From an uncultured Eggerthella sp. (lineage in GTDB: Bacteria > Actinomycetota > Coriobacteriia > Coriobacteriales > Eggerthellaceae): a stretch of 64,000 bases of DNA. The stretch is taken from NCBI GenBank assembly GCA_958409415.1, contig CATYMO010000002.1:17547-81546 (forward strand). Reading direction: 5' to 3'. Shown here piece by piece: positions 1,720-30,673 of this stretch (within the stretch, counting starts at the first letter, position 1; each line of letters begins with the position of its first letter). Position numbers and translations under genes: made by a program. The notes below the pieces were generated by a model. The model made no database searches, was not told where the DNA came from, and saw nothing but the letters and a program-made list of their open reading frames with translations.

Positions 1720-1876
1720 GCCCAGTTCGCAAATACTGCCCAGCCCAACCCACTTACCGAACATATTATCTCCATAAACGAAGCGTGCAGCGTGCAACCA
1801 ACATGAAGTAATAGAGTGAAAATGAGACTGATTAAGTCTCGTTTTATTATGAGCTCCTAAAAAAGGAGGAACAAGC

Positions 1877-3805: not shown

Positions 3806-3820
3806 GAAAGGAGGCACATC

Positions 3821-4702: not shown

Positions 4703-4711
4703 GGAGGTAAC

Positions 4712-5158: not shown

Positions 5159-5163
5159 GCGTT

Positions 5164-5733: not shown

Positions 5734-5735
5734 CA

Positions 5736-10604: not shown

Positions 10605-10606
10605 GA

Positions 10607-11929: not shown

Positions 11930-12351
11930 TGATCTCTCAATTAACGGTATTCCTTGAAAACCGCGAAGGCCGTTTGGCCTCCGCTATCCGCACGATCGCT
12001 GAAGCCGGCATCAACATGCAGGCGATGTTCTTGGCGGACACGAAGGATTTTGGCATCTTGCGCATCTTCTGCGACACGCCTGAGAAAGCGTGCCGCATCT
12101 TGCGTGAGGCAGATTATCAAGCGAAGTTGATCGATGTCGTTGCGGTCAAGGTACCCAACGTTCCTGGATCGCTTTCGAAGCTCTTCGATTATCTCGATGA
12201 TAAAGATATCAACGTCGAATACGCGCACTGCTTCATGGTAGGCGATCATGCGATCGATATCTTGAAGGTGGCCGATCCGGCGCTCGACGTGAAGCTTGCT
12301 GCAGAAGGATTCGAAGTCTGCAAGCCTGAGGATGTGTATGCGCTCGACTAG
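11929..12351 (+). CDS. ACT-domain protein (tandem ACT, ~140 aa), paired with paaK
   Basis: Two ACT-like beta-alpha-beta-beta-alpha-beta units; start overlaps the paaK stop (ATGA), consistent with translational coupling. Confidence 0.7.
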   Translation: MISQLTVFLENREGRLASAIRTIAEAGINMQAMFLADTKDFGILRIFCDTPEKACRILREADYQAKLIDVVAVKVPNVPGSLSKLFDYLDDKDINVEYAHCFMVGDHAIDILKVADPALDVKLAAEGFEVCKPEDVYALD

Positions 12352-13771
12352 GTCGCATATCCTTGATAGAACACGGACCAAATACGCAGGCATCTTTGCT
12401 TGCGTATTTGCGTTTGTCCTGAGCGTCGCGCTTTGTCCGTGCATCGCCCAGGCTGAAGTGCGCAATTCCGATGTGGTGCTCGGTCAGACCATCGAGGAGC
12501 AAGGCTTCACCGCTGCTCAAGCACCGAACATCGTCGCCGAATACGCCTATCTCGTTTCCAGCGATGGTACGATCTACTTTGCGCGTAACGCGTATGATCA
12601 AGTTCACATCGCATCCATCACGAAGATCATGACTGCGCTCGTTGCGCTCGACTATGGGGGAGACCCTACGCAGACCGAGATCACGGTCAGTCAAGAGGCA
12701 GCGAGCATCGGTGAATCCACTGCGGGGCTAAGAGCAGGCGATGTGCTCACGCTCGAAGCTGCGATCAAGGCGCTCATGATTCCTTCCGGCAACGATGCAG
12801 GTCAAGCCTTGGCTGAATCGCTCGGGCCGAAGATCTTGGAAGAACTGCAAAAGGATAAGAGCATTCCTGAAGATGAGATGCCTCAGAATGGCTACGATGC
12901 ATTCGTCTATGCGATGAACAAGAAGGCGCTCGCTCTCGGTATGAACGATGCGCATTTCAGCAACCCGCATGGTCTTGATTACGATCAGTTCAGCGGGGAT
13001 ATGCATTGCAGTGCTCAGAACGTTTCCATCATGGCTCGTGCTGCCATGGAAAACGAGCTTTTCCGTTCGGTCGTAGCAACGCCGAAGACCACGATCTCGG
13101 TAAAGCGTGGAGAGGGTTGGGTCGACCTTCAGCTCGAGTCGACCGATCTTCTGATCGGCGTCTATGAAGGCGCTTGCGGTATCAAGACCGGTTTCACCGA
13201 AGAAGCGGGCGAGTGCTTCGCGGGTGCTTGCGAGCGCGATGGGGAGACCCTCTACGCGATCGTGCTTCATTCGAGCACGGAAGCGCAGCGCTTCACCGAC
13301 TGCACGACCATGTGGAACTGGGTCTATGACAACACGATCGATGTTCCGCTGGCTTCTTCGGACGAAGTGATCACGCTTCAGCTCAATGGTCAAGAAGTCC
13401 AAGCGCCCGTCGTGGCGAATGTGAGCCATAAAGGCTGGCTCGATAAGACCTTCAAAGCAACGATCGCAAACCCGACTGAGACGGTCGAGGTCTTCCGCTA
13501 TAACGGAAATGTGAGCCAAGAAGTGGTTTTCGACGACATTACCAACACCGTGCATGCGGGAGACAAGGTGGGTACGGTAAACTATTACCAGAATAACGAG
13601 ATCATCAAAACGGTCGACCTTATTGCCGCAGAAGACTGCGCCGGTCCGAACTTCCTTGAAGGTATCGGCATCTGGTGGAGCAGGCTTACGGGCGGCGATC
13701 AAGCAAAGGAAGCTGAGAGCGAAGTGGTCAGCTCGATGCCGATCATCTACGGTGCCGATGCCACGCGCTAA
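12338..13771 (+). CDS. dacB: D-alanyl-D-alanine carboxypeptidase (S11 serine peptidase / low-MW PBP family) with signal peptide
   Basis: SxxK (ASITK), SGN (PSGND) and KTG-like motifs; N-terminal hydrophobic signal. ATG at 12338 chosen over the upstream ORF start, which overlaps the ACT gene. Confidence 0.75.
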   Translation: MRSTRSHILDRTRTKYAGIFACVFAFVLSVALCPCIAQAEVRNSDVVLGQTIEEQGFTAAQAPNIVAEYAYLVSSDGTIYFARNAYDQVHIASITKIMTALVALDYGGDPTQTEITVSQEAASIGESTAGLRAGDVLTLEAAIKALMIPSGNDAGQALAESLGPKILEELQKDKSIPEDEMPQNGYDAFVYAMNKKALALGMNDAHFSNPHGLDYDQFSGDMHCSAQNVSIMARAAMENELFRSVVATPKTTISVKRGEGWVDLQLESTDLLIGVYEGACGIKTGFTEEAGECFAGACERDGETLYAIVLHSSTEAQRFTDCTTMWNWVYDNTIDVPLASSDEVITLQLNGQEVQAPVVANVSHKGWLDKTFKATIANPTETVEVFRYNGNVSQEVVFDDITNTVHAGDKVGTVNYYQNNEIIKTVDLIAAEDCAGPNFLEGIGIWWSRLTGGDQAKEAESEVVSSMPIIYGADATR

Positions 13772-13798
13772 GCGTATAGAGGGGTAAGAGGGAAGCAT

Positions 13799-14233
13799 AT
13801 GACAACCTGTCCAGTGTGCATGAATGAAGCGAATAACGATGGAGACTGCTGTTCGGTGTGCGGCTACCATTTCCAAGATGCCACCGAAGCATTCGAGGCG
13901 ATATCCATCGATACCGAAGGTGAGCGTGCTCATGCTACCGATCAGGCACCTGCATCGCTTCGCGTGTGCTATGGCAAGCAGGAAGGTCTGGTGTTTCCGC
14001 TCGAGAGCGATTTCATCGAGATCGGCCGTTCTCCGCAATGTGGCGTGATGCTCAACGATATGACCGTTTCGCGCGTTCACGCTGAAATGGAGAAGATCAA
14101 CGGCGAATGGACCATCACGGACCGCGATTCGTTCAATGGCGTGTGGGTGAATAACGAAGCGATCAAGAATGCTGTGTTGAACCCAGGCGATCTTCTGCAG
14201 ATCGGCTGCTTCGTTCTTCGTTTCGTTGAATAA
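13799..14233 (+). CDS. Zinc-ribbon plus FHA-domain protein
   Basis: N-terminal CPVC…CSVCGYHF zinc ribbon; C-terminal FHA core (GRSPQCGVMLND…SRVHAEM…NGVWVN). Confidence 0.7.
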   Translation: MTTCPVCMNEANNDGDCCSVCGYHFQDATEAFEAISIDTEGERAHATDQAPASLRVCYGKQEGLVFPLESDFIEIGRSPQCGVMLNDMTVSRVHAEMEKINGEWTITDRDSFNGVWVNNEAIKNAVLNPGDLLQIGCFVLRFVE

Positions 14234-14290
14234 TCGCCCCTTCAAGATCTCGTCTTTTGAATCTTTTGAAAATACGAACAAGGATTACGT

Positions 14291-16018
14291 ATGGAATTTT
14301 TATCAGGTAATGAAGCGATCGCGCGTGGTGCGTGGGAAGCAGGGTGTCATATTGGCACTGCCTATCCAGGAACACCTTCTACCGAGACCATGGAAACCTT
14401 CGCAACGCTTCCTGGGGTCTACGCGGAATGGTGTCCGAACGAAAAGGTCGCGCTCGAGGTTGCGATGGGTGCTTCTGCAGCGGGTGCACGTGTGCTCGTT
14501 ACGATGAAGCACGTGGGCGTGAATGTGTGTGCCGATCCGCTTTTCACTGCCTCGTATACCGGCGTTAACGGTGGGGTGCTTTTGCTCGCCGCCGACGATC
14601 CGGGCATGTTCTCTTCGCAGAACGAGCAAGACAGTCGCTATTATGCCATGGCTTCTCTTGTACCCATTCTTGAGCCTGCCGATTCTCAGGAAGCGCTCGA
14701 TTTCGCACGCAGCGCCTACGATCTTTCCGAGCAGTTCGATGTTCCCTTCATGATGCGCTCTACCGTACGCATCTCGCACACGAAAACCCCTGTTGAAGTG
14801 GGGGAGCGCACCGAGGTTGAGAAGAAGCCTTACGAGAGCGACCCTACCAAATGGGTCATGATGCCCGCCTTCGCGAAGCCGCGCCGTAAGGTCGTGGTCA
14901 AGCGCACGGAAACGCTGAAGGAATGGGTGGAAACGTGCCCGTTCAATCGCGTGGAGAAGGGCGATACGAGCATCGGCATCATTTGCGCTGGTGCGGTCTA
15001 TGAGCATGTTAAGGAAGCTCTGGGTGACGTGAGCATCTTCAAGCTGGGTGTGACCTGGCCGCTGCCCGCAGACGCGCTCGCGCGATTTGCTGAGAGCGTG
15101 GATAAGGTGTACGTGGTCGAAGAGGCTTCGACCTATCTTTCGGATGCAGTACGTTCATGCGGTATCGCGCTCGATGAATTCGTTAACCCCTTGCCTGCCG
15201 ATGGCGAGGTTCATCCTGAAGATGTCCTGCGGGCGTTCGGAAAAGAAACTCCTGCGCACCTCGATACTCCTGGCGATGTTCCTAACCGTCCGCCTGCTCT
15301 TTGTGCGGGCTGCCCTCATCGTATCGTCTTTCGTGAGCTCGCACGCAACAAAGCCATCGTCACGGGTGATATCGGCTGCTATACGCTCGGCGCACTGCCG
15401 CCGCTCTCAGCCATGGATACTACGCTCGACATGGGCGCCTCTGTTTCGATGGCGCACGGCTTCGAGCTCGCAATGGCGGGAAGCGACCATCGTCCGATCG
15501 TGGGTGTGATCGGCGATTCCACGTTCGCGCATTCTGGCCTTTCGAGCCTCATCAACACGGTCTATAACAAGGGTGCTGGCACGATCTGCATCCTCGATAA
15601 TCGCACGACCGCCATGACCGGCCAGCAGGGCAATCCGTTCAATGGGGTGACGCTGCAAAACCGCGAGAGCAACGAGCTCGATCTACCCGTTGTCCTCGAT
15701 GCTATCGGCGTCGATCACGTGCAGGTGGTCGATGCGTTCGATCGTGATGCGGTACGGGGTGCGCTCAAAGAAGCGCTCGGCCGCGACGAACTTGACGTGA
15801 TCGTGTTCCGCGGTCCTTGCGTGCTGCTTTCTAAAACGAAGGATACGCCCTACTGCGTGAACGGGAACTGCACGGGCTGTGGTGTGTGTGTGACGCTGGG
15901 ATGCCCCGCAATTTCAACCGATCGCGAAACGGGCTTTTCGTCGATCGATACCGATATGTGCAATGGATGCTCGCAGTGCGCTCAGTACTGCGCGTTCGAT
16001 GCGATCGAGCGTCTGTAG
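14291..16018 (+). CDS. iorA: Indolepyruvate:ferredoxin oxidoreductase alpha subunit
   Basis: Characteristic N-terminus MEFLSGNEAIARGAWEAGCHIGTAYPGTPSTE; TPP motif GDIGCYTLG; C-terminal 2x[4Fe-4S] (CTGCGVCV…CPAI, CNGCSQCAQYC). Confidence 0.9.
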   Translation: MEFLSGNEAIARGAWEAGCHIGTAYPGTPSTETMETFATLPGVYAEWCPNEKVALEVAMGASAAGARVLVTMKHVGVNVCADPLFTASYTGVNGGVLLLAADDPGMFSSQNEQDSRYYAMASLVPILEPADSQEALDFARSAYDLSEQFDVPFMMRSTVRISHTKTPVEVGERTEVEKKPYESDPTKWVMMPAFAKPRRKVVVKRTETLKEWVETCPFNRVEKGDTSIGIICAGAVYEHVKEALGDVSIFKLGVTWPLPADALARFAESVDKVYVVEEASTYLSDAVRSCGIALDEFVNPLPADGEVHPEDVLRAFGKETPAHLDTPGDVPNRPPALCAGCPHRIVFRELARNKAIVTGDIGCYTLGALPPLSAMDTTLDMGASVSMAHGFELAMAGSDHRPIVGVIGDSTFAHSGLSSLINTVYNKGAGTICILDNRTTAMTGQQGNPFNGVTLQNRESNELDLPVVLDAIGVDHVQVVDAFDRDAVRGALKEALGRDELDVIVFRGPCVLLSKTKDTPYCVNGNCTGCGVCVTLGCPAISTDRETGFSSIDTDMCNGCSQCAQYCAFDAIERL

Positions 16019-16031
16019 AGGGGAGCGCGAT

Positions 16032-16616
16032 ATGAGCGATAAGACATTCACTATTTTGCTTTGCGGCGTTGGTGGTCAGGGGACGATCACTGCGGCCACG
16101 TTGCTCGCGCGTGTTGCGAGCGCGGCAGGGAAGTGCTGCAAGGTTTCTGAGATCCATGGTATGGCACAGCGTGGTGGCGCGGTCACCACGGTCGTACGTT
16201 TTGGCGATAACGTTTCTACGATGGTCTGTGACGAAGGCTGCGCTGATAACATCGTGTCGTTCGAGACCACCGAAGCGCTCCGCAACCTTGCTTATCTGAA
16301 GGAAGGCGGCGTGCTCGTCGTGAACGATGAGGAGATCAAGCCGCTTCCTGTGCTCACGGGCAAGGCCGAGATGCCCGCTCGTGCGCGTGAGCGTCTCGAT
16401 GAGCTGGGAGCAACGCTCATTCCTGCGAGCGAGCTCGCTCGCAGTGCAGGAACGGCGAAATGCGCAAATGTCGTGCTTCTTGGTGCGCTCGCAGTGAGCC
16501 TTCCATTCGAGTTTTCCCTTTGGGAAGAGGTCATTCGTAACAATGTCCCGCCCAAGACCATCGATATCAACCTCGAGGCATTCCATCTGGGTGCCAACTA
16601 TATGCAAGGAGAGTAG
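16032..16616 (+). CDS. iorB: Indolepyruvate:ferredoxin oxidoreductase beta subunit
   Basis: LLCGVGGQGTITAA pyruvate/2-oxoacid:Fd oxidoreductase gamma-type fold; ATG 14 nt after the iorA stop. Confidence 0.85.
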   Translation: MSDKTFTILLCGVGGQGTITAATLLARVASAAGKCCKVSEIHGMAQRGGAVTTVVRFGDNVSTMVCDEGCADNIVSFETTEALRNLAYLKEGGVLVVNDEEIKPLPVLTGKAEMPARARERLDELGATLIPASELARSAGTAKCANVVLLGALAVSLPFEFSLWEEVIRNNVPPKTIDINLEAFHLGANYMQGE

Positions 16617-16618
16617 CC

Positions 16619-17032
16619 ATGGCTGTTGCCCAGTTAAGTGTTTTCATCGAGAGCAAGGTCGGTCACCTGAAGCGCGTGCTCGAAGTGTTCGTGGAGAACG
16701 ATATCAGCGTGAAAGGCTATGCGTTAAGCGATACGGGTGATTATGGCATCGCGCGATTCGTGGTCGACAAGCCGCAGCGCGCTTTTGAAGTGCTCGAGGC
16801 GAAGGGTATGGCGGTCAAGCAGGCTGACGTGCTCTGCTTGAAGCTCATCGATGAACCAGGTGAGCTCGTGCGCGTGTTCGACGTGATCGCCCAGCAAGAT
16901 ATGAACGTGAAGTATTCTTACTCGCTCATCTCGACCTATATCGCAGTCGGCGTCGAAGACGTTGCGCGCGCGGAAGCTGCATTGGCCGAACAACCGGTCG
17001 AGCTCGTTTCGCAGGTTGATTTCTCGGCGTAA
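16619..17032 (+). CDS. ACT-domain protein (second copy), paired with the second paaK
   Basis: Paralogue of 11929-12351 (MxxxQLSVFxE…GI/GV…); starts 3 nt after iorB. Confidence 0.7.
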   Translation: MAVAQLSVFIESKVGHLKRVLEVFVENDISVKGYALSDTGDYGIARFVVDKPQRAFEVLEAKGMAVKQADVLCLKLIDEPGELVRVFDVIAQQDMNVKYSYSLISTYIAVGVEDVARAEAALAEQPVELVSQVDFSA

Positions 17033-17109
17033 TGCGCTTAGTGCTCGTGCGCTACTAGTAGTCGTTATCTCCTTCCATCCCTTCTATTCAGTATCAGAAT
17101 CGAGAACCT

Positions 17110-18429
17110 ATGAGTAATTCAGTGATCACCCCGATGTTCCAACCCGAGATCGAAACCATGTCGCGTGAAGAGATCCGCGCGCTGCAGCTTGCAAAGCTCA
17201 AGGATCAGGTTGCGTGGACCTATGAGCGCGTGCCATGGTATCGCGAGAAGATGGGGGAACTGGGAGTGGTGCCGGGCGATATTCAAACGCTCGAAGACAT
17301 TCGCAAGCTTCCCTTCACGGACAAGTCAGTGCTGCGTGACACCTATCCGTTCGGTCTTTTCGCCATTCCGATCGATGATGTGGTGCGCCTGCATGCTTCG
17401 TCGGGCACCACGGGAAAGCCGATCGTGGTGGGGTACAACGATCACGATCTGGACATTTGGCGCGATTGCATCGCCCGCTTGGCTCAGATGGCAGGCGTGG
17501 TACCTTCGGACCGCGTTCAGATGGCATTTGGCTATGGTATGTTCACCGGTGGCTTCGGACTGCACTATGGTCTTGAGCATCTGGGTTGCATGGTCATTCC
17601 GGCAGGGTCGGGCAATACCGAACGTCATCTCATGATGATCAACGACTACCAGACCACCGTGCTCATCGCCACACCTTCCTATGCGATGCACATGTGCGAA
17701 TATGGCGAGAAGCATGGTTTCGATTGGGAGAACTCGAGCTTGCGCATCGGGCTCTTCGGTGGCGAACCTTGTCCGCCGCCGCTCAAAGAAGAGATCGAGC
17801 GCCGCATGCACATCATCTGCACCGATAATTACGGCCTCACCGAAGTGATGGGTCCGGGCGTTTCAGGTGAATGCCTTGCGTGTCGCGACATGCAGCATAT
17901 CGCGGAGGATCATTTCTTCTGGGAGATCGTCGATCCAAAGACCGGCGAGCCGCTGCCTGAGGGCGTGCCGGGCGAGCTGGTGCTCACGCCGCTCGACAAG
18001 CAGGCGTTCCCGGTGCTGCGTTACCGCACGCACGATCTGAGCTATGTGATCACTGAGCCGTGCGCATGCGGACGCACTCATGCGCGCATGAAGAAGGTAC
18101 GTACCCGCACCGACGATATGCTCATCATCCGCGGAACGAATGTGTTCCCTTCGCAGGTGGAGGACATCCTGGCTGGCATCGAAGGCGTGAGTCCGCACTA
18201 TCGCATCGAAGTCGATAACGATAACGGACTCGATCATATGGTCATCATGGTCGAGCTGCTGCCAGAAGCGTTCAGCGATTCCTTCGAAGAGATGGATCGC
18301 TTCCGCAAGCAGATCCAGACCAAGCTCAAGGACACGATGCTCGTCTCCTCCGATGTGAAGCTCATCGAGCCAGGCGGGATCGAGCGCAGTTTCGGCAAGA
18401 CGAAACATGTTACCGATCGCAGAAACTAA
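17110..18429 (+). CDS. paaK: Phenylacetate--CoA ligase family paralogue (PaaK-like)
   Basis: Same motif set as 10607-11929 (SSGTTGKP, YGYGMFTGGFGLHYG, YGLTEVMGPGVS, RYRTHD). Confidence 0.85.
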   Translation: MSNSVITPMFQPEIETMSREEIRALQLAKLKDQVAWTYERVPWYREKMGELGVVPGDIQTLEDIRKLPFTDKSVLRDTYPFGLFAIPIDDVVRLHASSGTTGKPIVVGYNDHDLDIWRDCIARLAQMAGVVPSDRVQMAFGYGMFTGGFGLHYGLEHLGCMVIPAGSGNTERHLMMINDYQTTVLIATPSYAMHMCEYGEKHGFDWENSSLRIGLFGGEPCPPPLKEEIERRMHIICTDNYGLTEVMGPGVSGECLACRDMQHIAEDHFFWEIVDPKTGEPLPEGVPGELVLTPLDKQAFPVLRYRTHDLSYVITEPCACGRTHARMKKVRTRTDDMLIIRGTNVFPSQVEDILAGIEGVSPHYRIEVDNDNGLDHMVIMVELLPEAFSDSFEEMDRFRKQIQTKLKDTMLVSSDVKLIEPGGIERSFGKTKHVTDRRN

Positions 18430-21011: not shown

Positions 21012-22349
21012 ATGTCTGAAAACAAGATCGCTCAAAACTTCGGCGCGTGGGGATTGCTGAAATACGCGCTCCCTACCGTGTGCATGATGCTCTTCACGTC
21101 CATCTATACGATGGTCGATGGGGTGTTCGTTGCGCAGTTCGTTTCGGTCGATGCGCTCTCTGCGCTCAACATCGTCAATCCGCTCTTTTCGCTCGTGATG
21201 GGCTTCGGGGTGATGCTCGGCGCTGGCGGCTCTGCGGTCATCGCGAAGAATATCGGTGAAGGCGAAGAGCAGCAGGCATTCGATAACTTGAGCACGCTCG
21301 TGTTCTTCGGCACGATCCTTGGTCTGGTGCTCATGGTCTTGCTCCTCGTTTTCATGGAGCCGATCTTGAGTGTGCTTGGTGCTACCGACATACTGATGCC
21401 GTACTGCAAGGATTACTGCTATTACATCGTTGGATTTCTGGCACCGTGGGTGCTCGAGCTTATGTTCTCGAGTTACTTCATCACGGCAGGAAAGCCTCAG
21501 ATCGGGCTCATCGCAACACTGTGTTCTGGCATCTTCAACATCGTGGGGGATTATTTCCTGATCGTGGTCGTAGGAATGGGAATCAGGGGAGCGGCACTTG
21601 CAACAGGGCTTGCGACCTGTATTCCCGTGGTGATCGCGCTCATCTACTTCTTCAATAAGGAACATAGCCTTCATTTCGGACGCATCATGAATCGTCCGCG
21701 TATGATCCTGAAGAGTTGCACCAATGGGGTTTCGGAGATGATCTCGAATCTTGCCGCGATGGTCATCACGCTTTCCTATAACCTCATCATGCTTCGTCTT
21801 GCCGGTGAAGCAGGTGTTGCGGCGATTACGGTCATCCTCTATCTTGAGTTCCTTTTCACGGCAGGGTTGTATGGCTTCGCAAGTGGTATCGCGCCGATCA
21901 TCAGCTATAACTTTGGGGCGCAGAACCGTGTGCGTCTGCGTAGAGTGGTGCGCGATGCCTATGTGTTCATCGCGGCTGCGTCGGTCATTCTCTATGCGGC
22001 CTGCATGTTCGGCAATGAATTCTTGGTAGGGATCTTCGTTGCGCCCGGAACCGAATTGTTCGCTATGGCAAGCGGGGGTTTGCGGATCTTTGCAACAGGC
22101 TTCTTGTTCGCAGGGTTCAGCCTTATGACCTCGAATATGTTCACCGCGCTTTCGAACGGTGGCATTTCCGCGCTCATCTCTACACTGCGCAGCTTTGTGT
22201 TCGTGCTCATCTGCTTGATCTCGTTCTCGACGTTATGGGGCATAACGGGCGTGTGGTGCGCAGTGCCTGTTGCTGAAGTGCTCTCGTTGATCGTTTGCGG
22301 CATCTGCATCGCACTTTTCTACAAGCGCTATTTCTCGCTCGCTAAATAA
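21012..22349 (+). CDS. MATE-family multidrug/oligosaccharidyl-lipid efflux transporter
   Basis: 445 aa, 12 predicted TM helices, MATE-like conserved N-terminal segment. Confidence 0.75.
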   Translation: MSENKIAQNFGAWGLLKYALPTVCMMLFTSIYTMVDGVFVAQFVSVDALSALNIVNPLFSLVMGFGVMLGAGGSAVIAKNIGEGEEQQAFDNLSTLVFFGTILGLVLMVLLLVFMEPILSVLGATDILMPYCKDYCYYIVGFLAPWVLELMFSSYFITAGKPQIGLIATLCSGIFNIVGDYFLIVVVGMGIRGAALATGLATCIPVVIALIYFFNKEHSLHFGRIMNRPRMILKSCTNGVSEMISNLAAMVITLSYNLIMLRLAGEAGVAAITVILYLEFLFTAGLYGFASGIAPIISYNFGAQNRVRLRRVVRDAYVFIAAASVILYAACMFGNEFLVGIFVAPGTELFAMASGGLRIFATGFLFAGFSLMTSNMFTALSNGGISALISTLRSFVFVLICLISFSTLWGITGVWCAVPVAEVLSLIVCGICIALFYKRYFSLAK

Positions 22350-22401
22350 TGCATGAGGGTGTGTAAGGGGTCGATTCCCTCTACCTTGTTGCAATAAAAA
22401 A

Positions 22402-22422
22402 GCCAAGACAGTCTGCCTTGGC
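22402..22422 (+). terminator. Possible terminator after the MATE gene
   Basis: Imperfect hairpin GCCAAGACAG / CTGCCTTGGC followed by a T-rich run. Confidence 0.35.
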
Positions 22423-22435
22423 CTAATAGTTTTCC

Positions 22436-22509
22436 TGGAGCGGGTGACGGGAATCGAACCCGCGTGACCAGCTTGGAAGGCTGGAGTTCTACCATTGAAC
22501 TACACCCGC
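22436..22509 (-). tRNA. tRNA-Gly (anticodon UCC)
   Basis: Reverse complement folds as a cloverleaf: GCGGGTG acceptor, anticodon loop CTTCCAA, TPsiC GGTTCGATTCC, CCA encoded. Confidence 0.85.
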
Positions 22510-22517
22510 AAAAAAAA

Positions 22518-22596
22518 TGGTCGGGATGACAGGATTCGAACCTGCGACATCCTGCTCCCAAAGCAGGCGCGCTACCAAACTGCGCCACATCCCGAC
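22518..22596 (-). tRNA. tRNA-Pro (anticodon UGG)
   Basis: Reverse complement has anticodon loop TTTGGGA with stem CCTGC/GCAGG and TPsiC GGTTCGAATCC; exact ends +/-2 nt. Confidence 0.8.
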
Positions 22597-22805
22597 GCGA
22601 TGTTAAAACATTATAGCAAAAATAACGATGTATTTTTCTCTATTCTATTAGCGGGATATACGCTTTTGACTGGGCGATATAGGCATTTTTAATAATGCTA
22701 TTCCGATTGACAATTAATACTATTGGATGTTTTCCGAGCAACTGCAAAGAATAGAACTACAGAGCCAAACGCGTTCTGTTCAATATGCGTCTGAAGGGAA
22801 GAGCT

Positions 22806-23663
22806 ATGCAAGTATCGGGTCACACACAAACTATCGCATTAATCGGTTCTCCAGTTAAGCATTCTTTATCACCAGCTATGCATACTCAATCATTCAATGA
22901 GTTGGGTGTAGATTGTGTTTATCTTGCATACGACATCGAACCACAAGATCTAGAGTCTGCTGCTGTAGGTATGAAGAACATGGGGTTTGCAGGGTATAAC
23001 GTTACTATGCCTTATAAAACATTCATTCCGAAATACCTTGACGAACTATCTGACGCAGCGGAATTGATGGGTGCGGTAAACACGGTTGCTATCAAGCAAG
23101 GAAAGGCCATTGGTTACAACACTGATGGTGCCGGGTTTATGAGAAACCTCAAAGAAAATGGTGTTGATGTTATCGGAAAGAAGATCACGATCGTTGGTGC
23201 AGGTGGTGCAGGATCGGCTATATACACTCAAGCGGCACTTGATGGCGTTGCTGCGATCGATGTCTACAACATCAAGGATAAATTCTTTGACGTGACTGCT
23301 GAACGTGTGGCGGAAGTTGCTGAGAAGACAGGCTGCAAAATGCGCCTTATCGATCTCGAAGATAAAGAATCACTCAAGCAATCTATTGCTGAATCAGCAT
23401 TGTTCGTTAATGCAACACGCGTTGGCATGGGAGATTTGGTTGATCAAAGCGTTATTTCGCCAGACTATCTTGCCGATGGTATAGCGGTTGCTGATACGGT
23501 TTATGAGCCGCGTAAGACCAAGCTTTTGAAGGACGCTGAAGCAAAAGGACTCAAAGCGATCTCAGGCTTGGGCATGCTGCTCTGGCAGGCCGCGATCGCT
23601 GAAGATATTTGGGTTGGTAAGGAAATGCCCACAAAGCTCATTGAAGAGAGGTTCTTCAACTAA
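22806..23663 (+). CDS. Shikimate/quinate 5-dehydrogenase family oxidoreductase (AroE/YdiB-like), lower-GC copy
   Basis: SLSPAMH…GYNVTMP…NTDGAGF…GAGGAGSAI motifs of the shikimate DH family; GC ~42-45% vs ~57% host; RBS GAAGGGAAG. Confidence 0.8.
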   Translation: MQVSGHTQTIALIGSPVKHSLSPAMHTQSFNELGVDCVYLAYDIEPQDLESAAVGMKNMGFAGYNVTMPYKTFIPKYLDELSDAAELMGAVNTVAIKQGKAIGYNTDGAGFMRNLKENGVDVIGKKITIVGAGGAGSAIYTQAALDGVAAIDVYNIKDKFFDVTAERVAEVAEKTGCKMRLIDLEDKESLKQSIAESALFVNATRVGMGDLVDQSVISPDYLADGIAVADTVYEPRKTKLLKDAEAKGLKAISGLGMLLWQAAIAEDIWVGKEMPTKLIEERFFN

Positions 23664-23767
23664 GGGTTGCAGCCATGGGTGCCTTCGAAGAGGACACCCA
23701 TGATTCATCTGTTTAGAATCTTCCCTTGCATTGATTTGGCAAGGGTCACAAAGAAAGGGAAATCATC

Positions 23768-24814
23768 ATGGCAATCAGACTAGCGGTTTTTGGGCTTAAT
23801 CAAGGCTCAAAGATAGCTCGTGATGCAAAGGCGAGCGAAGAGTTCGATCTGGTAGCAGTTGCAGGTTTTGGTCAGCAAGCTGAAGACGTTGCGGCAGAGC
23901 TTGATGTGTCGCTCTATGCAGATTTCAATGATCTTCTAAAAGAGGTGCCACTTGATGCAGTAGCGATTGCGCTTCCGAACGGACTTCATGTAAGTTCAAC
24001 GCGTGCATGTTTGGATGCGGGGGTTAAGAACATCCTATTGGAGAAGCCTATTGCTAATACGGTCGAAGAAGCGCAAGAGATCATTGCTATGTGCGATGAA
24101 GCAGGTGCGATGCTGCTCATCGGCCACCATCGTCGTTCTTCATCAAAGTATCTTTTCCTGCGTGATTTTATTGAATCAGGTAAGCTTGGTGATCTTGTTG
24201 GCGTGCAGGCCTCTTATGCGATCGCGAAACCGTATGCCTACTATGATGTCGAGTGGCATACCAAGAAAGGTGGCGGCCCGTTCCTTATCAATGCGATCCA
24301 TGATATCGATGACCTAAATTACACCACTGGTATGAAGGCTAATCGTGTCTATGCCGCGGCGCGTAATACGATCCGTGGTAATGAGATCGAAGACTCGGCC
24401 TCGATCGTTATTGAGTTCGAAAACGGCATTACAGCTACCTATTTTATTTCTGATGGCACACCAAGTCCTTGGAACTACGACTTAGCTGCAGAAGAGAATC
24501 ATTTCTTCAAGTGGTGCCCAGGCGAGAATAGTCTGCGTTTTTTCGGCACAAAAGGGTCGCTTGGATTCCCGAACATGGACTTCTATCATTACGCTGATGA
24601 CGATCATTATGGTTGGGGAGAAGAGTTGATCGCCGAACATTACGAGATAGAAAAGAACGATCCCATGACAGCCGAACTCGAGCATTTTGCCGATCTGTGT
24701 ACGGGGCGCGAGAGTAAACCTCGTTGTACAGGTGAAGACGGCATTACAACGCTCAAAGTCATCAATGCTATTCTTGAATCAGCAGAGACGCGTAAAGTTG
24801 TTGATATCAAATAA
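23768..24814 (+). CDS. Gfo/Idh/MocA-family NAD(P)-dependent oxidoreductase, lower-GC copy
   Basis: N-terminal Rossmann fold (AVFGLNQGS), EKP motif (LLEKPIANT), GHHRR segment; ~85% aa identity to 27019-28065. Confidence 0.8.
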   Translation: MAIRLAVFGLNQGSKIARDAKASEEFDLVAVAGFGQQAEDVAAELDVSLYADFNDLLKEVPLDAVAIALPNGLHVSSTRACLDAGVKNILLEKPIANTVEEAQEIIAMCDEAGAMLLIGHHRRSSSKYLFLRDFIESGKLGDLVGVQASYAIAKPYAYYDVEWHTKKGGGPFLINAIHDIDDLNYTTGMKANRVYAAARNTIRGNEIEDSASIVIEFENGITATYFISDGTPSPWNYDLAAEENHFFKWCPGENSLRFFGTKGSLGFPNMDFYHYADDDHYGWGEELIAEHYEIEKNDPMTAELEHFADLCTGRESKPRCTGEDGITTLKVINAILESAETRKVVDIK

Positions 24815-24872
24815 GCTATGATTTTATTCGGCAATTCTTTCTCGGATCAACGTTAAATAGAAAGCTCAATGA

Positions 24873-25793
24873 GTGAATTTTTCTCATCTAACATATTTCA
24901 AAAAGCTTGCAGAAGTGAAGCATTTCACGAAAGCTGCTTCAGAGCTTTACGTTTCGCAGCCAACGCTTTCTGCCGCTATTTCTTCGCTCGAAAAGGAACT
25001 AAATACCCGTTTGTTCTATCGTGCGAACAATAAGATAGAACTAACACCATGTGGAGAGGAATTCTATGATTACGTTTCTCGGGGATTGCGAATCATCGAG
25101 CAAGGAATTCAAGCTGTCGAAGAATATGAAGGGAAGATAAATGGAGCCTTGAACCTCGGTACGCTTTACGCGATACAGAGTAAAGATTGGTCGCAGGCGA
25201 TACAGTCCTTTCAAGACGAATGTGGAGCTGGTCTGACGATCAACATAACTCAGGGTTTCACCCCTTCTTTGTTTGAAGGACTAGAGTCAGGCAGATTGGA
25301 TGTCATCTTCGCAGGAAAGCCTCAAACTTCGAATAAATACAACTGTACCTATTGCTGGGCGCAGGAACTGGCAGTTGCAGTGAACAAGAGGCATCCCCTT
25401 GCGAAAAAGTCTGTCGTAACACTCGATGACTTGGCTGGATTTCACATTATTTCATACCATAAAGATTCACCAGTATACGATGAAATGGAAGCATTGCTTC
25501 AGCAGGCTGAATGCGAATTGGATGTCGAATATGCTTATAACGATGAGATCACTTTGTCTTCCCTGGTAAATTCAGATACCAATGATGTTGCATTATTGTG
25601 CTATTCGTTTTTGGTCAAGGCTTTTGACGATGTTGTCTATCTGCCTCTTCAAGATGCCCCTAGGGAGTTCCACAAAGTCTATCTGATTTCAAATAAAGCT
25701 ATTACGCAGCCAAGAGTTGTATCAGATTTTGTTACCTATATGAAAAACTACCATTTTCCAACTGCAACAGTACGTCCTTTGCAGAAAGAATAG
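24873..25793 (+). CDS. LysR-family transcriptional regulator
   Basis: N-terminal wHTH (HLTYFKKLAEVKHFTKAASELYVSQPTLSAAISSLEKEL) plus LysR substrate-binding domain; GTG start; low-GC codon usage. Confidence 0.8.
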   Translation: MNFSHLTYFKKLAEVKHFTKAASELYVSQPTLSAAISSLEKELNTRLFYRANNKIELTPCGEEFYDYVSRGLRIIEQGIQAVEEYEGKINGALNLGTLYAIQSKDWSQAIQSFQDECGAGLTINITQGFTPSLFEGLESGRLDVIFAGKPQTSNKYNCTYCWAQELAVAVNKRHPLAKKSVVTLDDLAGFHIISYHKDSPVYDEMEALLQQAECELDVEYAYNDEITLSSLVNSDTNDVALLCYSFLVKAFDDVVYLPLQDAPREFHKVYLISNKAITQPRVVSDFVTYMKNYHFPTATVRPLQKE

Positions 25794-26067
25794 GGAGGGG
25801 AAAGATAAGGCTGCATCAAGAATAAAGAATAACGGCATTATTTTTTCGCTGTAGTGAATGTAGTGAAAATCTTTGTATGGTATGTCTCATCCAGTTTTGA
25901 ATTGAATATTGTTTCTTAAGGCAAAGCAACAGTAAAGCAAACACTTCTACTGTATATCTCTATTTCATGGTAAAAATAGTAGGTGAATATCTTGCTATTT
26001 GTAGAGATTATTGGATATTGTTGGAACTGCATCATTGCAATATCTCAATAGAAGTAAAGGATCTGTT

Positions 26068-26928
26068 ATGCCTAATATCTCTGGCCACACGAAAACGATC
26101 TGTTTGATCGGCTCACCCGTGGAGCATTCGCTTTCACCAGCTATGCATACCTTCTCGTTCGAGCAACTTGGCGTCGATTGTGTGTACCTTGCTTACAATG
26201 TTGAGCCTGACCAGCTCGAAGCTGCTGTGAATGGCATGAAAGAGCTTGGGTTTCTTGGCTACAACGTCACCATGCCGCATAAGACCTATATTTCACGTTA
26301 TCTCGACGAGCTTTCGCCAGCTGCTGAGCTGATGGGTGCCATCAATACGGTAGTCATCAAAGATGGCAAAGCGATCGGTCATAACACCGATGGCGCGGGC
26401 TTCATGCGCAATATAGAAGAGAATGGCGTTGAGGTGGTTGGCAAGAAGGTCACGGTGATGGGTGCAGGTGGCGCTGCGATGGCTATCTATACTCAGGCTG
26501 CCCTCGATGGCGTTGCTGCGATCGATGTCTATAAACGAAAAAACGATTCATACGATGCTGCTGCAGAGCATGTTGCGCACATTGCTGAAAAAACTGGGTG
26601 CAACATTCGCTTGATCGATATGGCAGATAAAGAGGCTATGAAGGCTTCTATCGCTGAATCAGTATTACTCATCAATGCCACTAATGTGGGTATGGGCGAT
26701 CTGGAAGGAATAAGCGTTGTTCCTGCAGAACTTTTAGTTGAAGGTCTGGTTGTTGCAGACGTCATCTACGTGCCACGCAAGACGAAGTTGCTCGAAGATG
26801 CCGAAGCTAAGGGGCTCAAGACCATCAATGGTCTTGGCATGCTTCTGTGGCAAGCTGCTATCGCTGAAGATATTTGGGTAGGTAAGGAAATGCCTACGGA
26901 GCTGGTCCAAGAAAAATTCTTCGACTAA
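26068..26928 (+). CDS. Shikimate/quinate 5-dehydrogenase family oxidoreductase, host-GC copy
   Basis: Same motifs as 22806-23663 (~80-85% aa identity); RBS AAAGGA; internal ATG start chosen over the ORF start at 26011. Confidence 0.8.
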   Translation: MPNISGHTKTICLIGSPVEHSLSPAMHTFSFEQLGVDCVYLAYNVEPDQLEAAVNGMKELGFLGYNVTMPHKTYISRYLDELSPAAELMGAINTVVIKDGKAIGHNTDGAGFMRNIEENGVEVVGKKVTVMGAGGAAMAIYTQAALDGVAAIDVYKRKNDSYDAAAEHVAHIAEKTGCNIRLIDMADKEAMKASIAESVLLINATNVGMGDLEGISVVPAELLVEGLVVADVIYVPRKTKLLEDAEAKGLKTINGLGMLLWQAAIAEDIWVGKEMPTELVQEKFFD

Positions 26929-27018
26929 GAACGCGCTATTCGTGATCTCATGCATGGTGTTCAAGGGTAAACATCAGAAGAGTTTCAGATATACAAGGAA
27001 AAATGGAGGGGTAAGAAC

Positions 27019-28065
27019 ATGGCTATTAGATTTGCCGTATTCGGATTGAATCAGGGTTCGAAGATCGCACGCGATGCGAAGAAGAATCCCGATTATGATT
27101 TGGTGGCAGTTGCTGGTTTTGGTCAGCAAGCTGAAGATGTTGCTGCCGAGCTTGAGGTGCCGCTCTATGCGGATTATACCGAGCTGCTCAATGAGGTACC
27201 GCTCGATGCGGTTGCGATCGCGCTGCCGAATGGCCTGCATGTGAGCGCAACCCGTAATGCGCTCGACGCAGGTGTTCGTAATATCTTGCTCGAAAAGCCC
27301 ATTGCCAACACGGTAGAAGAAGCGAACGAGATCATTGCGATGTGCAAGGAGGCAGACGCCACGTTGCTTATCGGTCACCATCGTCGTTCTTCTACAAAGT
27401 ACTTGTTCCTGCGTGATTTTATCGCTTCGGGCAAGTTGGGCGATCTGGTCGGCGTTCAAGCCACGTATGCTATTGCGAAACCCTATAACTATTGGGATGT
27501 GGAATGGCACACGAAAAAGGGTGGCGGTCCGTTCCTCATCAATGCGATCCATGATATCGACGATCTTAACTACACCACCGGCATGAAGGTTACGCGCGTT
27601 TATGCCGCTGCACGCAATACGATCCGTGGTAACGAAGTCGAAGATTCTGCTTCTATCGTGATCGAATTCGATAATGGCGTTACGGCAACCTACTTCATCT
27701 CCGATGGCACGCCGGGTCCGTGGAACTATGACTTGGCTGCTGAGGAAAACCACTTCTTCCAGTGGTGTCCAGGCGAGAACAGCTTGCGCTTCTTCGGCAC
27801 GCAGGGTTCATTCGGTTTCCCGAATATGGATTTCTACCATTATGTTGACGATGATCATTATGGCTGGGCGGAGAAGCTTGTCACGGAGCACTTCGATGTC
27901 GAGAAGAACGACCCGATGACGGCAGAGATCGAGCATTTCGCAGACCTCTGTCTTGGGCGAGAAACGGTACCGCGCTGCACTGGCGAAGATGGCGTTGCAA
28001 CGCTCAAGGTCATCAATGCGATCCTTGAATCAGCGGAGACCGGTAAGCTCGTCGAAATCGACTAA
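27019..28065 (+). CDS. Gfo/Idh/MocA-family NAD(P)-dependent oxidoreductase, host-GC copy
   Basis: Collinear paralogue of 23768-24814 with higher GC and host-like codons. Confidence 0.8.
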   Translation: MAIRFAVFGLNQGSKIARDAKKNPDYDLVAVAGFGQQAEDVAAELEVPLYADYTELLNEVPLDAVAIALPNGLHVSATRNALDAGVRNILLEKPIANTVEEANEIIAMCKEADATLLIGHHRRSSTKYLFLRDFIASGKLGDLVGVQATYAIAKPYNYWDVEWHTKKGGGPFLINAIHDIDDLNYTTGMKVTRVYAAARNTIRGNEVEDSASIVIEFDNGVTATYFISDGTPGPWNYDLAAEENHFFQWCPGENSLRFFGTQGSFGFPNMDFYHYVDDDHYGWAEKLVTEHFDVEKNDPMTAEIEHFADLCLGRETVPRCTGEDGVATLKVINAILESAETGKLVEID

Positions 28066-28200
28066 GACACTTTCCTTTACTTCAATACAGCAGGAAAAGG
28101 CTCTCTTCGGGGAGCCTTTTCCTGTTTCGCGTTGTTTTTTCGTACTCGTGTGGCTTGCGGCAGACGCGATTGAATTCCTGGGCTATAATAATCACGTTTT

Positions 28201-28277
28201 GCGCCCATAGCTCAGCTGGATAGAGCAGTGGACTTCTAATCCAAAGGTCGTAGGTTCGAATCCTACTGGGCGCGCCA
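28201..28277 (+). tRNA. tRNA-Arg (anticodon UCU)
   Basis: GCGCCCA acceptor, D-loop AGCTCAGCTGGATAGAGC, anticodon loop CTTCTAA, TPsiC GGTTCGAATCC, CCA encoded. Confidence 0.85.
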
Positions 28278-28432
28278 TGAACATTCTCTGCCTGCTTCGA
28301 GCAGGCTCTTTTTATCATGTATGTTTGTCATGGTAAACTTTATTTCATTGACACTGCTCATAATGCTGATAACATATGAACAGATGCTCATATGTAAGCT
28401 ATTAGAATAACGCTTTAGTAAAGAGGAACCGT

Positions 28433-30673
28433 ATGGAGCAAACGATAAGAATAGCGATCGATGGTATGCACTGTGCGAATTGCGTGGCTAATGTCGAGAA
28501 GCATTATCGTGCACTGCCAAGCGTTTTCGACGTCGCGGTCAATCTTGCGAACAACACGGGGCGTGTGACGTTCGACCCTTCTCAGGCGAGCGTGGATGAC
28601 ATGCTGAAGGTCTTCGACGATCTGCCCTTTACGGCAGAGCTTATCGCCGAAGATGTGCCCTTGGTCGATGAGAAGCGACGCGCGAAAGAGGCAGCGGAGC
28701 GCAAGCACGACCTCAAGGTATTCGTGGTATCTGCCGTTCTTACCGTGATCATCTTCTCGATCGGCATGATCCCTGGCTGGCATATGGCAGTAGGTCACTT
28801 CATCGCAAGCGCTTTCTTCGGCAGCGCAGCAACGCACGTGCAAGCGATGTTTGCAGGCAATATCCTGCTTCTCGTGCTCACGCTGCCCGTGCAGTTCGGC
28901 TGTGGCTCACGTTTCTATAAGGGCGCATTCGATTCTCTGCGCAGTGGGAGCGCGAATATGGATGTGCTCGTTGCGCTCGGTACCACGATCGCGTTTCTCT
29001 TCTCGCTTTGGATCACGTTCTTGCCGGTCATTACGAACAACTGGAGCGATGCTGAAGTGGCTCTCGCTATCAATGAAGGTATGCCTTATTTCGAAACGTG
29101 CGCGATGCTCATCACGTTCGTTTTGCTCGGAAAGATACTGGAGACGCGCGCAAAGGGAGCGACCAACCAGGCGATCGAGGCGCTCATCAACCTTACGCCG
29201 CCGACAGCGCAAGTGCGGCGCGGTGGTGCAGTGGTAGAGATCCCGCTTGCCCAGGTGGTCGTAGGAGATAGCGTGCTCGTCGGGCCAGGTGAGAAGGTGG
29301 CCGTCGATGGGGAAGTGATCAGAGGATCGACCGAGATCGATGAATCCATGCTCACTGGTGAAGCGCTGCCAGTGACGAAGCAGCCAGGCGACAGCGTTAC
29401 GGGCGGTACAGTGAACACCACAGGCGCCATCACCGTGCGCGCGTTGCGTGTGGGAAGCGATTCGACGCTTGCCCGCATCGTTCGCGCCGTTGAGGATGCG
29501 CAGGGCTCGAAAGCTCCCGTGCAGCGCTTGGCGGACAAGATCGCGTCGGTCTTCGTGCCGTGTATCCTCGGAATCTCTCTCATCACGTTCTGCATCTGGT
29601 TCTTCTTCGTTCCGCCAGCTGGTGCGAATACGCTGCTCACGCAGTCCCTTTTGCCTGCGATCGCGGTCATCGTGGTTGCGTGCCCCTGCGCGCTTGGCCT
29701 TGCAACGCCAACTGCGCTCATGGTAGGCATGGGCAAAGGCGCTCAGCTGGGTATTCTTATCAAAGATGGTGAAGTGCTCGAACGTCTTGGAAAGCTTGAC
29801 GCAGCGGTGTTCGACAAGACCGGTACGATCACGGTGGGAAAACCCCAGGTAGTTTCGTGCTCGCTCACGCCCGAGAACCTTCGTCTTGCCGCTGCGCTCG
29901 AAACGAAGAGCGAGCATCCGCTTGCCCGCGCAGTCGTTGAATACGCTCAAGCACGCGGACTGGTGCTTCCTTCAGTAAGCAACTTTCGTGCGCTTGTCGG
30001 CGAAGGTGTCGAAGGCGAAGTCGAGGGGCATCAGGTGAAGGTTGGCTCTTTGGTGTTCATTGATGGTGCTGAAGTGGGCGGATTCGAGTTCTCGGACGAA
30101 GCCAAGCCAGATGCCAAGCAGACGATCGAGACGCTGGAGCGAAACTACGGCATTACGAGCTATATGGTTACGGGCGATAATGCTGCGCAGGCTGCGCGCA
30201 TCGCTTCTGAGGTTGGTATCGCGTCAGATAACGTGTTCGTGGGGGTCAAGCCGCTTGAGAAAGCGGAATGCGTTGAAGCAGTGAAGGCATCGCTTGAAGC
30301 AGCCGACTTGCGCGCCAGTTCAAAGCAAAGCACGCAAACGGTTGCCTTCGTAGGGGACGGCATCAACGACGCACCGGCACTTGCCGCAGCAGATGTTGGC
30401 GTCGCGATGGCGTCGGGCACGGATGTCGCACTCGAGGCAGGTTCGGTTGTGCTCATGCGCAATCACCTGCGCGATCTGGTCACTAGCCTGCGGCTTTCGA
30501 AGGCCACCATGCGCAAGATCAAGCAGAATCTGTTTTGGGCGCTCATCTATAACTGCATCATGATCCCGCTTGCGGCGGTGGGCATCCTGGCTCCTGCGCT
30601 TGCGGGCGCGGCGATGGCGCTCTCGAGCGTGACGGTCGTTTGCAACTCCCTTCTTCTGAAGCGTTTCAAGTAG
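28433..30673 (+). CDS. copA: Copper-translocating P1B-type ATPase
   Basis: N-terminal HMA domain (GMHCANC), TM CPC motif ([10 protein letters not shown]), DKTGT phosphorylation site, GDGINDAP hinge. Confidence 0.9.

Follow-up and report, generated by a model that had tools for sequence, protein, structure and literature searches.

A low-GC copy of an aroE-gfo gene pair with its LysR gene, probably imported, beside a second copy at a tRNA-bracketed site in an uncultured Eggerthella

The subject of this study is a five-gene locus in a 64,000-nt stretch of DNA from an uncultured Eggerthella sp. (GenBank assembly GCA_958409415.1, contig CATYMO010000002.1, positions 17,547 to 81,546 of the forward strand), which as a whole is referred to as the window. 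The five genes, aroE1, gfo1, lysR, aroE2 and gfo2, are co-directional, lie at positions 22806-28065 of the window and are bracketed by tRNA genes. Each aroE gene encodes a protein of the shikimate dehydrogenase (SDH) family, each gfo gene a Gfo/Idh/MocA-family oxidoreductase, and lysR a LysR-type regulator. The patterns seen in the gene trees, in the distances and in the base composition together favour import of the upstream pair (copy 1) and lysR beside the downstream pair (copy 2). Copy 1 and lysR would be xenologues, probably derived from a lower-GC member of the lineage to which two of the compared loci, L007 and L019, belong. The favoured timing, judged from the sequences, is later than the split between the genera but earlier than the radiation of the present species. 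Such an event is a clean but ordinary gain of a paralogue from a related genus, and current understanding is not overturned.

The same five-gene tandem is found in L001 ('Eggerthella sp. CAG:298') and in L003 to L006, which are species-level representatives with flanks about 88-98% identical to the window at the nucleotide level. In these relatives, which with the window are called the clade below, the module genes and the flanks have diverged to a similar extent. L042, a 274-kb metagenome contig, is identical to the window across 22400-28500. Loci compared from further away include L008 (Anaerotardibacter muris) and L007, L009, L010 and L045, from other lineages. The gene layout and coordinates of an earlier reading of this DNA (the original prediction) hold when set against the open reading frames, a tRNA scan and Pfam. 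The two copies are collinear, with an offset of 3251 nt and 75-78% nucleotide identity over blocks of 250-300 nt, and the duplication of the aroE-gfo pair far exceeds chance expectation. The protein identity of 80-85% that had been proposed for the copies is right for gfo1 and gfo2 (85.1% protein, 76% nucleotide identity) but too high for aroE1 and aroE2 (71.6% and 68%, respectively). The number of synonymous substitutions per site (dS) between the two copies is saturated for both the aroE and the gfo pairs.

Base composition of the locus

The original prediction had described a lower-GC segment at this position. A sliding-window check finds it, 22.0-26.3 kb being the sole stretch of the 64-kb window with a GC below 0.48 (1-kb windows). 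The contrast which had been drawn between the copies stands for copy 1 and lysR (45.2% GC for aroE1, 47.1% for gfo1 and 42.0% for lysR) but was overdrawn for copy 2, where aroE2 and gfo2 have only 49.0% and 52.1%, not 55-58%. Copy 2 had been called native; it is the resident that we infer, but it too is somewhat GC-poor, below the window mean of 53.8%. The intergenic DNA between lysR and aroE2 (IG2) is as AT-rich as had been reported (Table 1).

The difference is sharper in the GC content of third codon positions (GC3). The 48 other open reading frames of the window served as the reference, with a mean GC3 of 0.640, a standard deviation (sd) of 0.046 and a minimum of 0.533. The values for aroE1 (0.423), gfo1 (0.444) and lysR (0.407) are low, with z-scores of -4.3 to -5.1, and those for copy 2 are 0.509 (aroE2, z -2.8) and 0.590 (gfo2, z -1.1). 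Copy 1 and lysR have a GC3 of 0.37-0.45 in every species of the clade, and the sister species L003 and L005 show the same offset. Single-copy modules, in contrast, match the GC3 of their own genomes. The module has 0.69-0.73 in L007 (background 0.65-0.75), 0.55-0.60 in L008 (0.54-0.67), 0.43 in L009 (0.43-0.47) and 0.82-0.84 in L045, a high-GC lineage (0.80-0.88). A mismatch with the rest of the genome was seen only in copy 1 and lysR of this clade and, in the opposite direction, in the module of L019.

Gene trees and distances

Gene trees were constructed by neighbour-joining (NJ) with 200 bootstraps. Copy 1 groups firmly with L007 (100% bootstrap for aroE1 and 96% for gfo1), and L009 and L010 join next; all of these loci bear lysR. 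aroE2 groups weakly with A. muris at 81%, and the placement of gfo2 is weak. The original prediction had named sister copies of equal GC3 as the mark of a plain tandem duplication. What was found is that copy 1 lies with L007 and has a GC3 of 0.42-0.44, against 0.51-0.59 for copy 2. As the copies are not sisters and their GC3 is unequal, a plain tandem duplication fails.

The numbers of nonsynonymous substitutions per site (dN) give the same picture. Among gfo2, gfo1 and the gfo genes of L007 and L008, dN is 0.084-0.104 for each pair except gfo1 and L007, where it is 0.038. For aroE all pairs give 0.17-0.23, except aroE1 and L007 at 0.076. At the amino acid level gfo1 is 93.4% identical to L007, against 85% to gfo2, L008 and L009. 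Four housekeeping proteins encoded in the flanks were used for comparison, and their amino acid identities are given in the order window-L007, window-L008 and L007-L008: P-type ATPase 78/78/79%, OTC 93/89/92%, ArgRS 85/84/85% and glutamate dehydrogenase 93/92/93%. The three distances are thus nearly equal for all four proteins. Judged by these sequences, the distance from copy 1 to L007 is about half of what would be expected from the housekeeping flanks, and gfo2 and the gfo genes of L007 and L008 have the appearance of orthologues that are equally far from one another. Within the clade the rate of evolution of gfo2 is one fifth of that of gfo1, and yet gfo2 is the further of the two from its nearest single-copy relative, which argues against two equally old orthologue pairs.

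Composition, trees and distances therefore all support the earlier proposal that copy 1 came from a lower-GC relative and not from a recent duplication in situ. The acquisition is old, since it is common to at least five species-level lineages with a dS of about 0.5. A search for the donor among 745 gfo homologues gave no lineage closer to copy 1 than L007.

The tRNA-bracketed site in related genomes

In L007 the order of genes is tRNA-Gly, tRNA-Pro, aroE, gfo, lysR, tRNA-Arg, followed by a P-type ATPase gene, OTC and argS. A. muris has a single unit in an L007-like order minus lysR, and in L009 a single unit is inverted between the same tRNA genes. The tRNA-Pro gene is arranged as in the window in L005, L006, L007, L008 and L009, and tRNA-Arg has the position found in the window in L001-L008 and L019. 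The tRNA-Gly/tRNA-Pro pair is 98-100% identical across genera. lysR follows gfo in L007, L009, L010, L019 and L045, and it is not found beside the copy-2-like modules of A. muris and L002. Three other genus-level relatives have a single module between these same tRNA genes, which indicates an ancestral site rather than an integrase island. In addition, the 5' ends of both sets of tRNA genes point towards the module, and this is not the side on which tRNA-targeting integrases insert.

The original prediction had noted that no integrase or repeats were visible, and this is borne out, ie the 64-kb window contains neither an integrase gene nor a flanking direct repeat. A repeat search for island borders or remnants of tRNA genes at the locus also found none. 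An inverted match between tRNA-Pro and tRNA-Arg (I3) was considered as an island border and rejected, being merely the shared T-arm. Two features expected of tRNA-associated islands are present, atypical composition (GC3 z -4 to -5) and variable presence (L002 is without copy 1 and lysR). The tRNA setting itself, to which the original prediction had drawn attention, is not the mark of an inserted island here; the module is at these tRNA genes in every related genus examined, and mobile elements are on the opposite, 3' side.

Such elements were seen in two loci. In L043 (246-5584) a tyrosine integrase gene and unknown open reading frames lie on the 3' side of tRNA-Pro/Gly, corresponding to about position 22430 of the window. 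In L002 (1-8778) the 3' side of the tRNA is occupied by GC-rich DNA encoding ParA, ParB, Abi_C and Schlafen/AlbA_2 proteins. tRNA-Gly was not detected in L043 or L002, where the mobile genes abut the site. Other strains of the species group show that the tRNA beside the module is a hot spot for integration.

L002 is also the locus in which the module itself varies. Its positions 8779-11414 (window 26068-28432) hold the copy-2 unit alone, directly after tRNA-Pro, without copy 1 and lysR. Its aroE2 is about 88% identical to that of the window, rising to about 97% to the right of position 26850 or thereabouts, and its intergenic region is unrelated to IG2. This part of L002 is a recombination tract with a breakpoint at the 3' end of aroE2, and gives direct evidence of recombination at the locus.

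In L019 (22-7636) the flanking genes have a GC3 of 0.43-0.48, and within the module gfo has 0.61 and lysR 0.50. Amino acid identities between L019 and L007 are 94% for lysR, 94% for OTC, 90% for argS and 84% for the P-type ATPase. The L019 module may also have been exchanged at this locus.

Gain of the upstream unit and the intergenic regions

In the mechanism we propose, the downstream aroE2-gfo2 unit would be the lineage's own orthologue, to which the upstream unit, the LysR gene and their own upstream region were added. Recombination in the near-identical tRNA-Pro/Gly genes would have provided the left-hand anchor, and on the right the DNA would have been joined illegitimately, directly ahead of the promoter region of the resident unit. 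The DNA may have been mobilised by integrative elements of the kind that occupy the adjoining tRNA in other strains. Xenologous gene addition by homologous or homology-facilitated illegitimate recombination is a general phenomenon between related genomes. The present case resembles it in having a probably foreign homologue beside the resident at an orthologous site with conserved tRNA anchors. It differs in that an addition and not a replacement would have taken place, the donor is unsampled, and no right-hand junction was identified.

IG2 consists of two parts. Its 5' 81 bp are only 48-59% identical among the species of the clade (dS about 0.5), and its 3' 193 bp (25875-26067) are 89-90% identical. 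A variable 81 bp followed by a conserved 193 bp fits an illegitimate right-hand join, which the 5' 81 bp may represent. The conserved part has an RNA fold z-score of -2.39 relative to shuffled sequences, and may be the promoter/operator of aroE2 or a structured leader. Compared with the intergenic region upstream of aroE1 (IG1) and with the intergenic regions of L002, L007 and L008, IG2 is 40-43% identical, which is about random, and cannot be aligned. IG1 is 89-91% conserved among the species of the clade and 55% identical to the intergenic region of L007, with which it shares blocks such as TAATACTATTGGA. It presumably holds the promoter of tRNA-Pro/Gly as well as that of aroE1.

Bare matches to the LysR-type motif T-N11-A number 18 in IG1, three in the spacer between gfo1 and lysR, and 31 in IG2. 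None of those in the three regions has at least five of seven dyad pairs, and shuffled sequences give 0.2-1.5 such sites. An Rfam scan of 22300-28500 returned the three tRNAs and sub-threshold tRNA look-alikes only, with no match in IG2. Consensus scans for promoters and terminators gave counts no higher than in shuffled sequences, and no terminator was found between the five genes.

Alternative histories

Several points weigh against import. The GC3 of copy 2, too, is 1-3 sd lower than that of the window. No sampled genome is both low in GC and closer to copy 1 than L007, the module of which has a GC3 of 0.73, and as a low-GC lineage nearer than L007 was not sampled the donor is hypothetical. 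Relations among the three genus-level lineages were taken from the four flanking proteins, in a species tree with no outgroup; copy 1 could be vertical if the clade and L007 were true sister genera. The deep branching of gfo2 and aroE2 has bootstrap values of 53-81%, by NJ only. Lastly, no trace of a tRNA, or of the intergenic DNA of L002 and L008, can be recognised in IG2, and the junction model is unproven.

Because of the four-protein species relations, the weak deep nodes and the unsampled low-GC donor, a second history has to be taken seriously, although we consider it unlikely. This is an ancient duplication in situ of aroE-gfo, with or without lysR, before the genera diverged, followed by reciprocal losses, ie of the downstream unit in L007, L009 and L010, and of the upstream unit and lysR in A. 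muris and L002, both being kept here. Such a duplication would yield the tandem, collinear units at an ancestral site, and the saturated dS between the copies implies an old split. The aroE tree contains a weak division into type 1 (72%) and type 2 (aroE2 with L008, 81%), and the 2.7-fold faster evolution of aroE2 relative to aroE1 could account for part of the asymmetry in the distances. However, duplication leaves unexplained why copy 1 and lysR are about 0.2 below the genome GC3 throughout the clade when the module matches the genome in four single-copy lineages. gfo2 is no nearer to L008 (dN 0.104) than to L007 (0.084), and, although slower than gfo1, it lies at double the distance from the gene that would be its orthologue. 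This history also calls for at least three losses, each independent of the others.

The reverse assignment, in which copy 1 and lysR are the resident orthologue of L007 and aroE2-gfo2 is an insertion between lysR and tRNA-Arg, draws on the aroE-gfo-lysR order shared with L007, L009, L010 and L045, on the blocks that IG1 has in common with L007 and on a rooted NJ tree with gfo2 outside all other close orthologues, but it is very unlikely, for it makes the resident the strongest compositional outlier (z -4 to -5) and the immigrant near native (z -1 to -3), the distance to L007 is smaller for copy 1 than for the housekeeping genes, and the lysR-less unit at tRNA-Arg is common to the window, A. 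muris and L002.

Selection on the two copies

Whatever their origin, both units are maintained. Within the clade dN/dS is 0.035-0.040 for aroE1, 0.027-0.039 for gfo1, 0.052-0.071 for lysR, 0.044-0.055 for aroE2 and 0.007 for gfo2. The corresponding dS is 0.3-1.0, similar to that of the flanks (0.46-0.57). aroE2 is the fastest of the five genes, with a dN of 0.056 relative to L005. gfo2 is 99.4-100% identical in amino acid sequence across the clade, with a dN of 0.004 compared with 0.019 for gfo1. Strong purifying selection on both units suggests a division of labour between them.

One exception to the intact state of the genes was found. In L044 (9050-9910) codon 81 of aroE2 is changed from GAG to TAG (window 26308-26310) in a locus which is otherwise nearly identical. 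This is either a natural knock-out of the copy-2 SDH or an assembly error. Two other apparent pseudogenes were rejected as artefacts of gene calling: the short lysR of L041, where the gene is intact, and the 227-aa aroE1 of L042, where the DNA is identical to the window. In the latter (L042:5962) the public call starts 174 nt downstream, at window position 22980, and lacks the SxS motif. The open reading frame from 22806 has a ribosome-binding site, GGGAAGAG, and aligns with all orthologues.

The shikimate dehydrogenase-family proteins

Both SDHs contain the Pfam domains PF08501 (E 3.7e-28 and 8.7e-29) and PF18317 (above cut-off). In an alignment with Listeria 3TNL, which we take to be Lmo0490, both proteins and every close orthologue keep the catalytic Lys (NVTxPxK), the Asp of NTDG and the SxS motif, as well as the Gln of LLWQ and the GAGGA loop for NAD(P). 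Among structures in the PDB, aroE1 ranks Listeria 3TNL (E 8.7e-87) and YdiB (9e-64) ahead of E. coli AroE 1NYT (2.2e-24). The specific aroE equivalogs of NCBIfam were not reached and only the general model TIGR00507 was passed, with 217-219 bits against a cut-off of 200. By these comparisons both SDHs are closest to the YdiB/Lmo0490-like branch rather than to the biosynthetic AroE type.

The copies differ in the cofactor loop (23241-23290 and 26506-26555, respectively), the part of the protein that senses the 2'-position of the cofactor, which reads YNIKD in aroE1 and YKRKND in aroE2. Across the orthologues type 1 has YN(I/M)(K/H)D and type 2 has (Y/F)(K/R)R(K/N)ND. The difference suggests a preference for NAD in aroE1, the loop of which has no Arg, and a tolerance of NADP in aroE2.

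The Gfo partner and the LysR regulator

All of PF01408, PF22725 and PF02894 match gfo1, which thus has the N-terminal Rossmann and the C-terminal alpha/beta domain of the family. The best sequence match of the Gfo protein is 1,5-anhydrofructose reductase (AFR), with an E-value of 1.7e-21. A structure of gfo1 modelled with AF2 (pLDDT 86.8) was compared using Foldseek, which returned generic folds of the family only, at a TM of about 0.8 and about 22% identity; the top neighbour was cis-4,5-dihydrodiol phthalate dehydrogenase (7X1X). Across 40 homologues the lysine of the EKP motif and a histidine (H178) do not vary. The Asp usually found four positions ahead of that His appears to be replaced, as the segment aligned to 'LDITVHD' of AFR reads 'LINAIHD'. 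No NCBIfam equivalog was reached by the Gfo protein, and the structural neighbours give no substrate assignment. The Gfo dehydrogenases acting on six-membered rings, ie 7X1X, 2GLX (1,5-anhydro-D-fructose reductase), the inositol dehydrogenases, glucuronide-3-dehydrogenase and DgpA, share with gfo1 the two-domain fold, the EKP Lys and the His. From these gfo1 differs in the apparent replacement of the Asp and in an identity of only about 22%.

The LysR protein has the domains PF00126 (E 3.6e-20) and PF03466 (E 3.6e-23). Its best matches in the PDB and NCBIfam are generic (7W06, BenM, OxyR and GltC) and far below the cut-offs, and no equivalog was reached. lysR lies downstream of gfo1, is co-directional with the copy-1 unit and was assigned to it.

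Possible function of the gene pair

The SDH and Gfo proteins probably form a redox module acting on hydroaromatic or cyclitol carboxylates of the quinate/shikimate kind, as the original prediction had suggested and as far as can be judged from the families involved. The enzymes would interconvert hydroxyl and keto groups on carboxylates of the quinate, shikimate or dihydroshikimate type obtained from the gut. In distant Eggerthellaceae the pair lies beside an aromatic-acid/H+ symporter-like MFS gene, a small VOC protein gene and a LysR gene, often with repeated MFS-LysR units. Two findings tell against this function. The locus in this genome has neither a transporter nor a dehydratase, and a classification of the regulator as QuiR/QsuR-type was rejected, its matches being generic only and its position downstream and non-divergent. 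No dehydroquinate or dehydroshikimate dehydratase was found in the window or in the related loci, and in this respect the locus is not a qui/qsu cluster.

The distant loci have some features of their own. In L035 (5669-16359) and in L037 and L038 (6338-17053) the genes are those of MFS, Glyoxalase_4 (VOC), Gfo, SDH and LysR, and then MFS-LysR repeats. L037 and L038 have in addition a second Gfo and LysR, and two MFS copies of L035 have identical HMM scores. An enoyl-CoA hydratase gene and a copper-type P-ATPase gene are also near. Local gene amplification seems to be common around the module.

Alternatively, and under any of the histories above, both SDHs might be biosynthetic shikimate dehydrogenases, supplying chorismate for menaquinone and aromatic amino acids, with an unrelated Gfo. 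This is improbable, although not without grounds. Both proteins pass TIGR00507 at the scores given and keep all catalytic and shikimate-binding residues, the 64-kb window holds no other aro gene or SDH, and genes of the menaquinone type (UbiA/MenA and a thioesterase) lie upstream. Those upstream genes, however, are not conserved neighbours in L007 and L008, and neither SDH reaches the aroE-specific equivalog models. Among characterised proteins the two SDHs are closest to YdiB and Listeria Lmo0490 (of the qui operon), which are not biosynthetic, and the pairing of SDH with Gfo is kept across many Eggerthellaceae in varying gene orders, with LysR, MFS and VOC genes.

Nothing was found in the literature that deals directly with the pairing of SDH and Gfo, or with quinate metabolism in Eggerthellaceae. 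The qui1 and qui2 operons of Listeria monocytogenes, with the LysR-type regulators QuiR and QuiR2, yield protocatechuate from quinate and shikimate (bioRxiv 10.1101/2025.04.08.647683). The present locus is like them in having two SDH-family paralogues and a LysR-type gene, and the nearest solved structure is from Listeria (3TNL/3TOZ). The Listeria enzymes work outside aromatic biosynthesis, as those of the window probably do. It differs in that AroD and QuiC2 are absent, the constant partner is a Gfo/Idh/MocA protein, and lysR is co-directional and downstream, not divergent and upstream. Other SDH-family systems of quinate/shikimate dehydrogenation are qsuABCD of Corynebacterium glutamicum, with the LysR-type QsuR, and ydiB-aroD of E. 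coli. An SDH with a LysR-type regulator, and MFS genes in relatives of the locus, are features in common, whereas the window locus is without QsuB, QsuC (or AroD) and a transporter. The organism is anaerobic, and no beta-ketoadipate route is expected.

Eggerthella lenta respires shikimate as an electron acceptor (bioRxiv 10.1101/2022.12.26.521950). A more far-reaching interpretation of the locus is speculative, and rather doubtful as a whole. The pair would be a new anaerobic route for dietary hydroaromatic acids, perhaps specific to gut Coriobacteriia; native and imported versions would be kept for a difference in substrate or cofactor (NAD as against NADP); and the tRNA-bracketed cassette would have been exchanged repeatedly between genera with the help of integrative elements. 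Candidate substrates would then be quinate, shikimate and dihydroshikimate, with coffee, fruit and chlorogenates as their sources. If the import is real, the locus is a small documented case of gut Actinomycetota gaining paralogues from a sister genus at an orthologous site and keeping both for a long time. The analysis also draws attention to a conserved, uncharacterised enzyme pair which could be involved in what happens to quinate and shikimate under anaerobic conditions in the gut, a poorly known subject. The question is experimentally approachable, as Anaerotardibacter muris is a cultured single-copy relative.

Features of the locus and its surroundings

The coordinates of the locus are collected in Table 1.

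Table 1. Features of the aroE-gfo locus and its tRNA boundaries, in window positions.
Feature	Position	Strand	Remarks
tRNA-Gly(tcc)	22436-22509	-	left site boundary; ARAGORN, Rfam tRNA 72.5 bits
tRNA-Pro(tgg)	22518-22594	-	5' end toward module; ARAGORN, Rfam
intergenic region IG1	22595-22805	.	GC 36.5%
aroE1, SDH-family, copy 1	22806-23663	+	Shikimate_dh_N E 3.7e-28, plus SDH_C (Pfam)
gfo1, Gfo/Idh/MocA oxidoreductase, copy 1	23768-24814	+	three Pfam GFO_IDH_MocA domains
lysR, LysR-type regulator, GTG start	24873-25793	+	Pfam HTH_1 and LysR_substrate
intergenic region IG2	25794-26067	.	GC 32.8%
aroE2, SDH-family, copy 2	26068-26928	+	Pfam Shikimate_dh_N and SDH_C
gfo2, Gfo/Idh/MocA oxidoreductase, copy 2	27019-28065	+	Pfam GFO_IDH_MocA N and C domains
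tRNA-Arg(tct)	28201-28277	+	right boundary; 5' end toward module; ARAGORN, Rfam
terminator	28290-28306		3' of tRNA-Arg(tct)

The surroundings of the locus in the window are core chromosome. Subunits of a membrane complex resembling complex I/hydrogenase-4 and a VanW-domain protein are encoded within 1853-6821 and 10571-18426. The same core stretches contain two phenylacetate-CoA-ligase-like AMP-binding genes, which flank the genes of an indolepyruvate:ferredoxin oxidoreductase-like TPP enzyme and an ACT protein, and genes for GluQ-RS, a UbiA/MenA prenyltransferase and a 4HBT thioesterase. A second, unrelated regulator of the LysR family is encoded on the minus strand at 51649-52734, adjoining a cation-efflux (CDF) gene.

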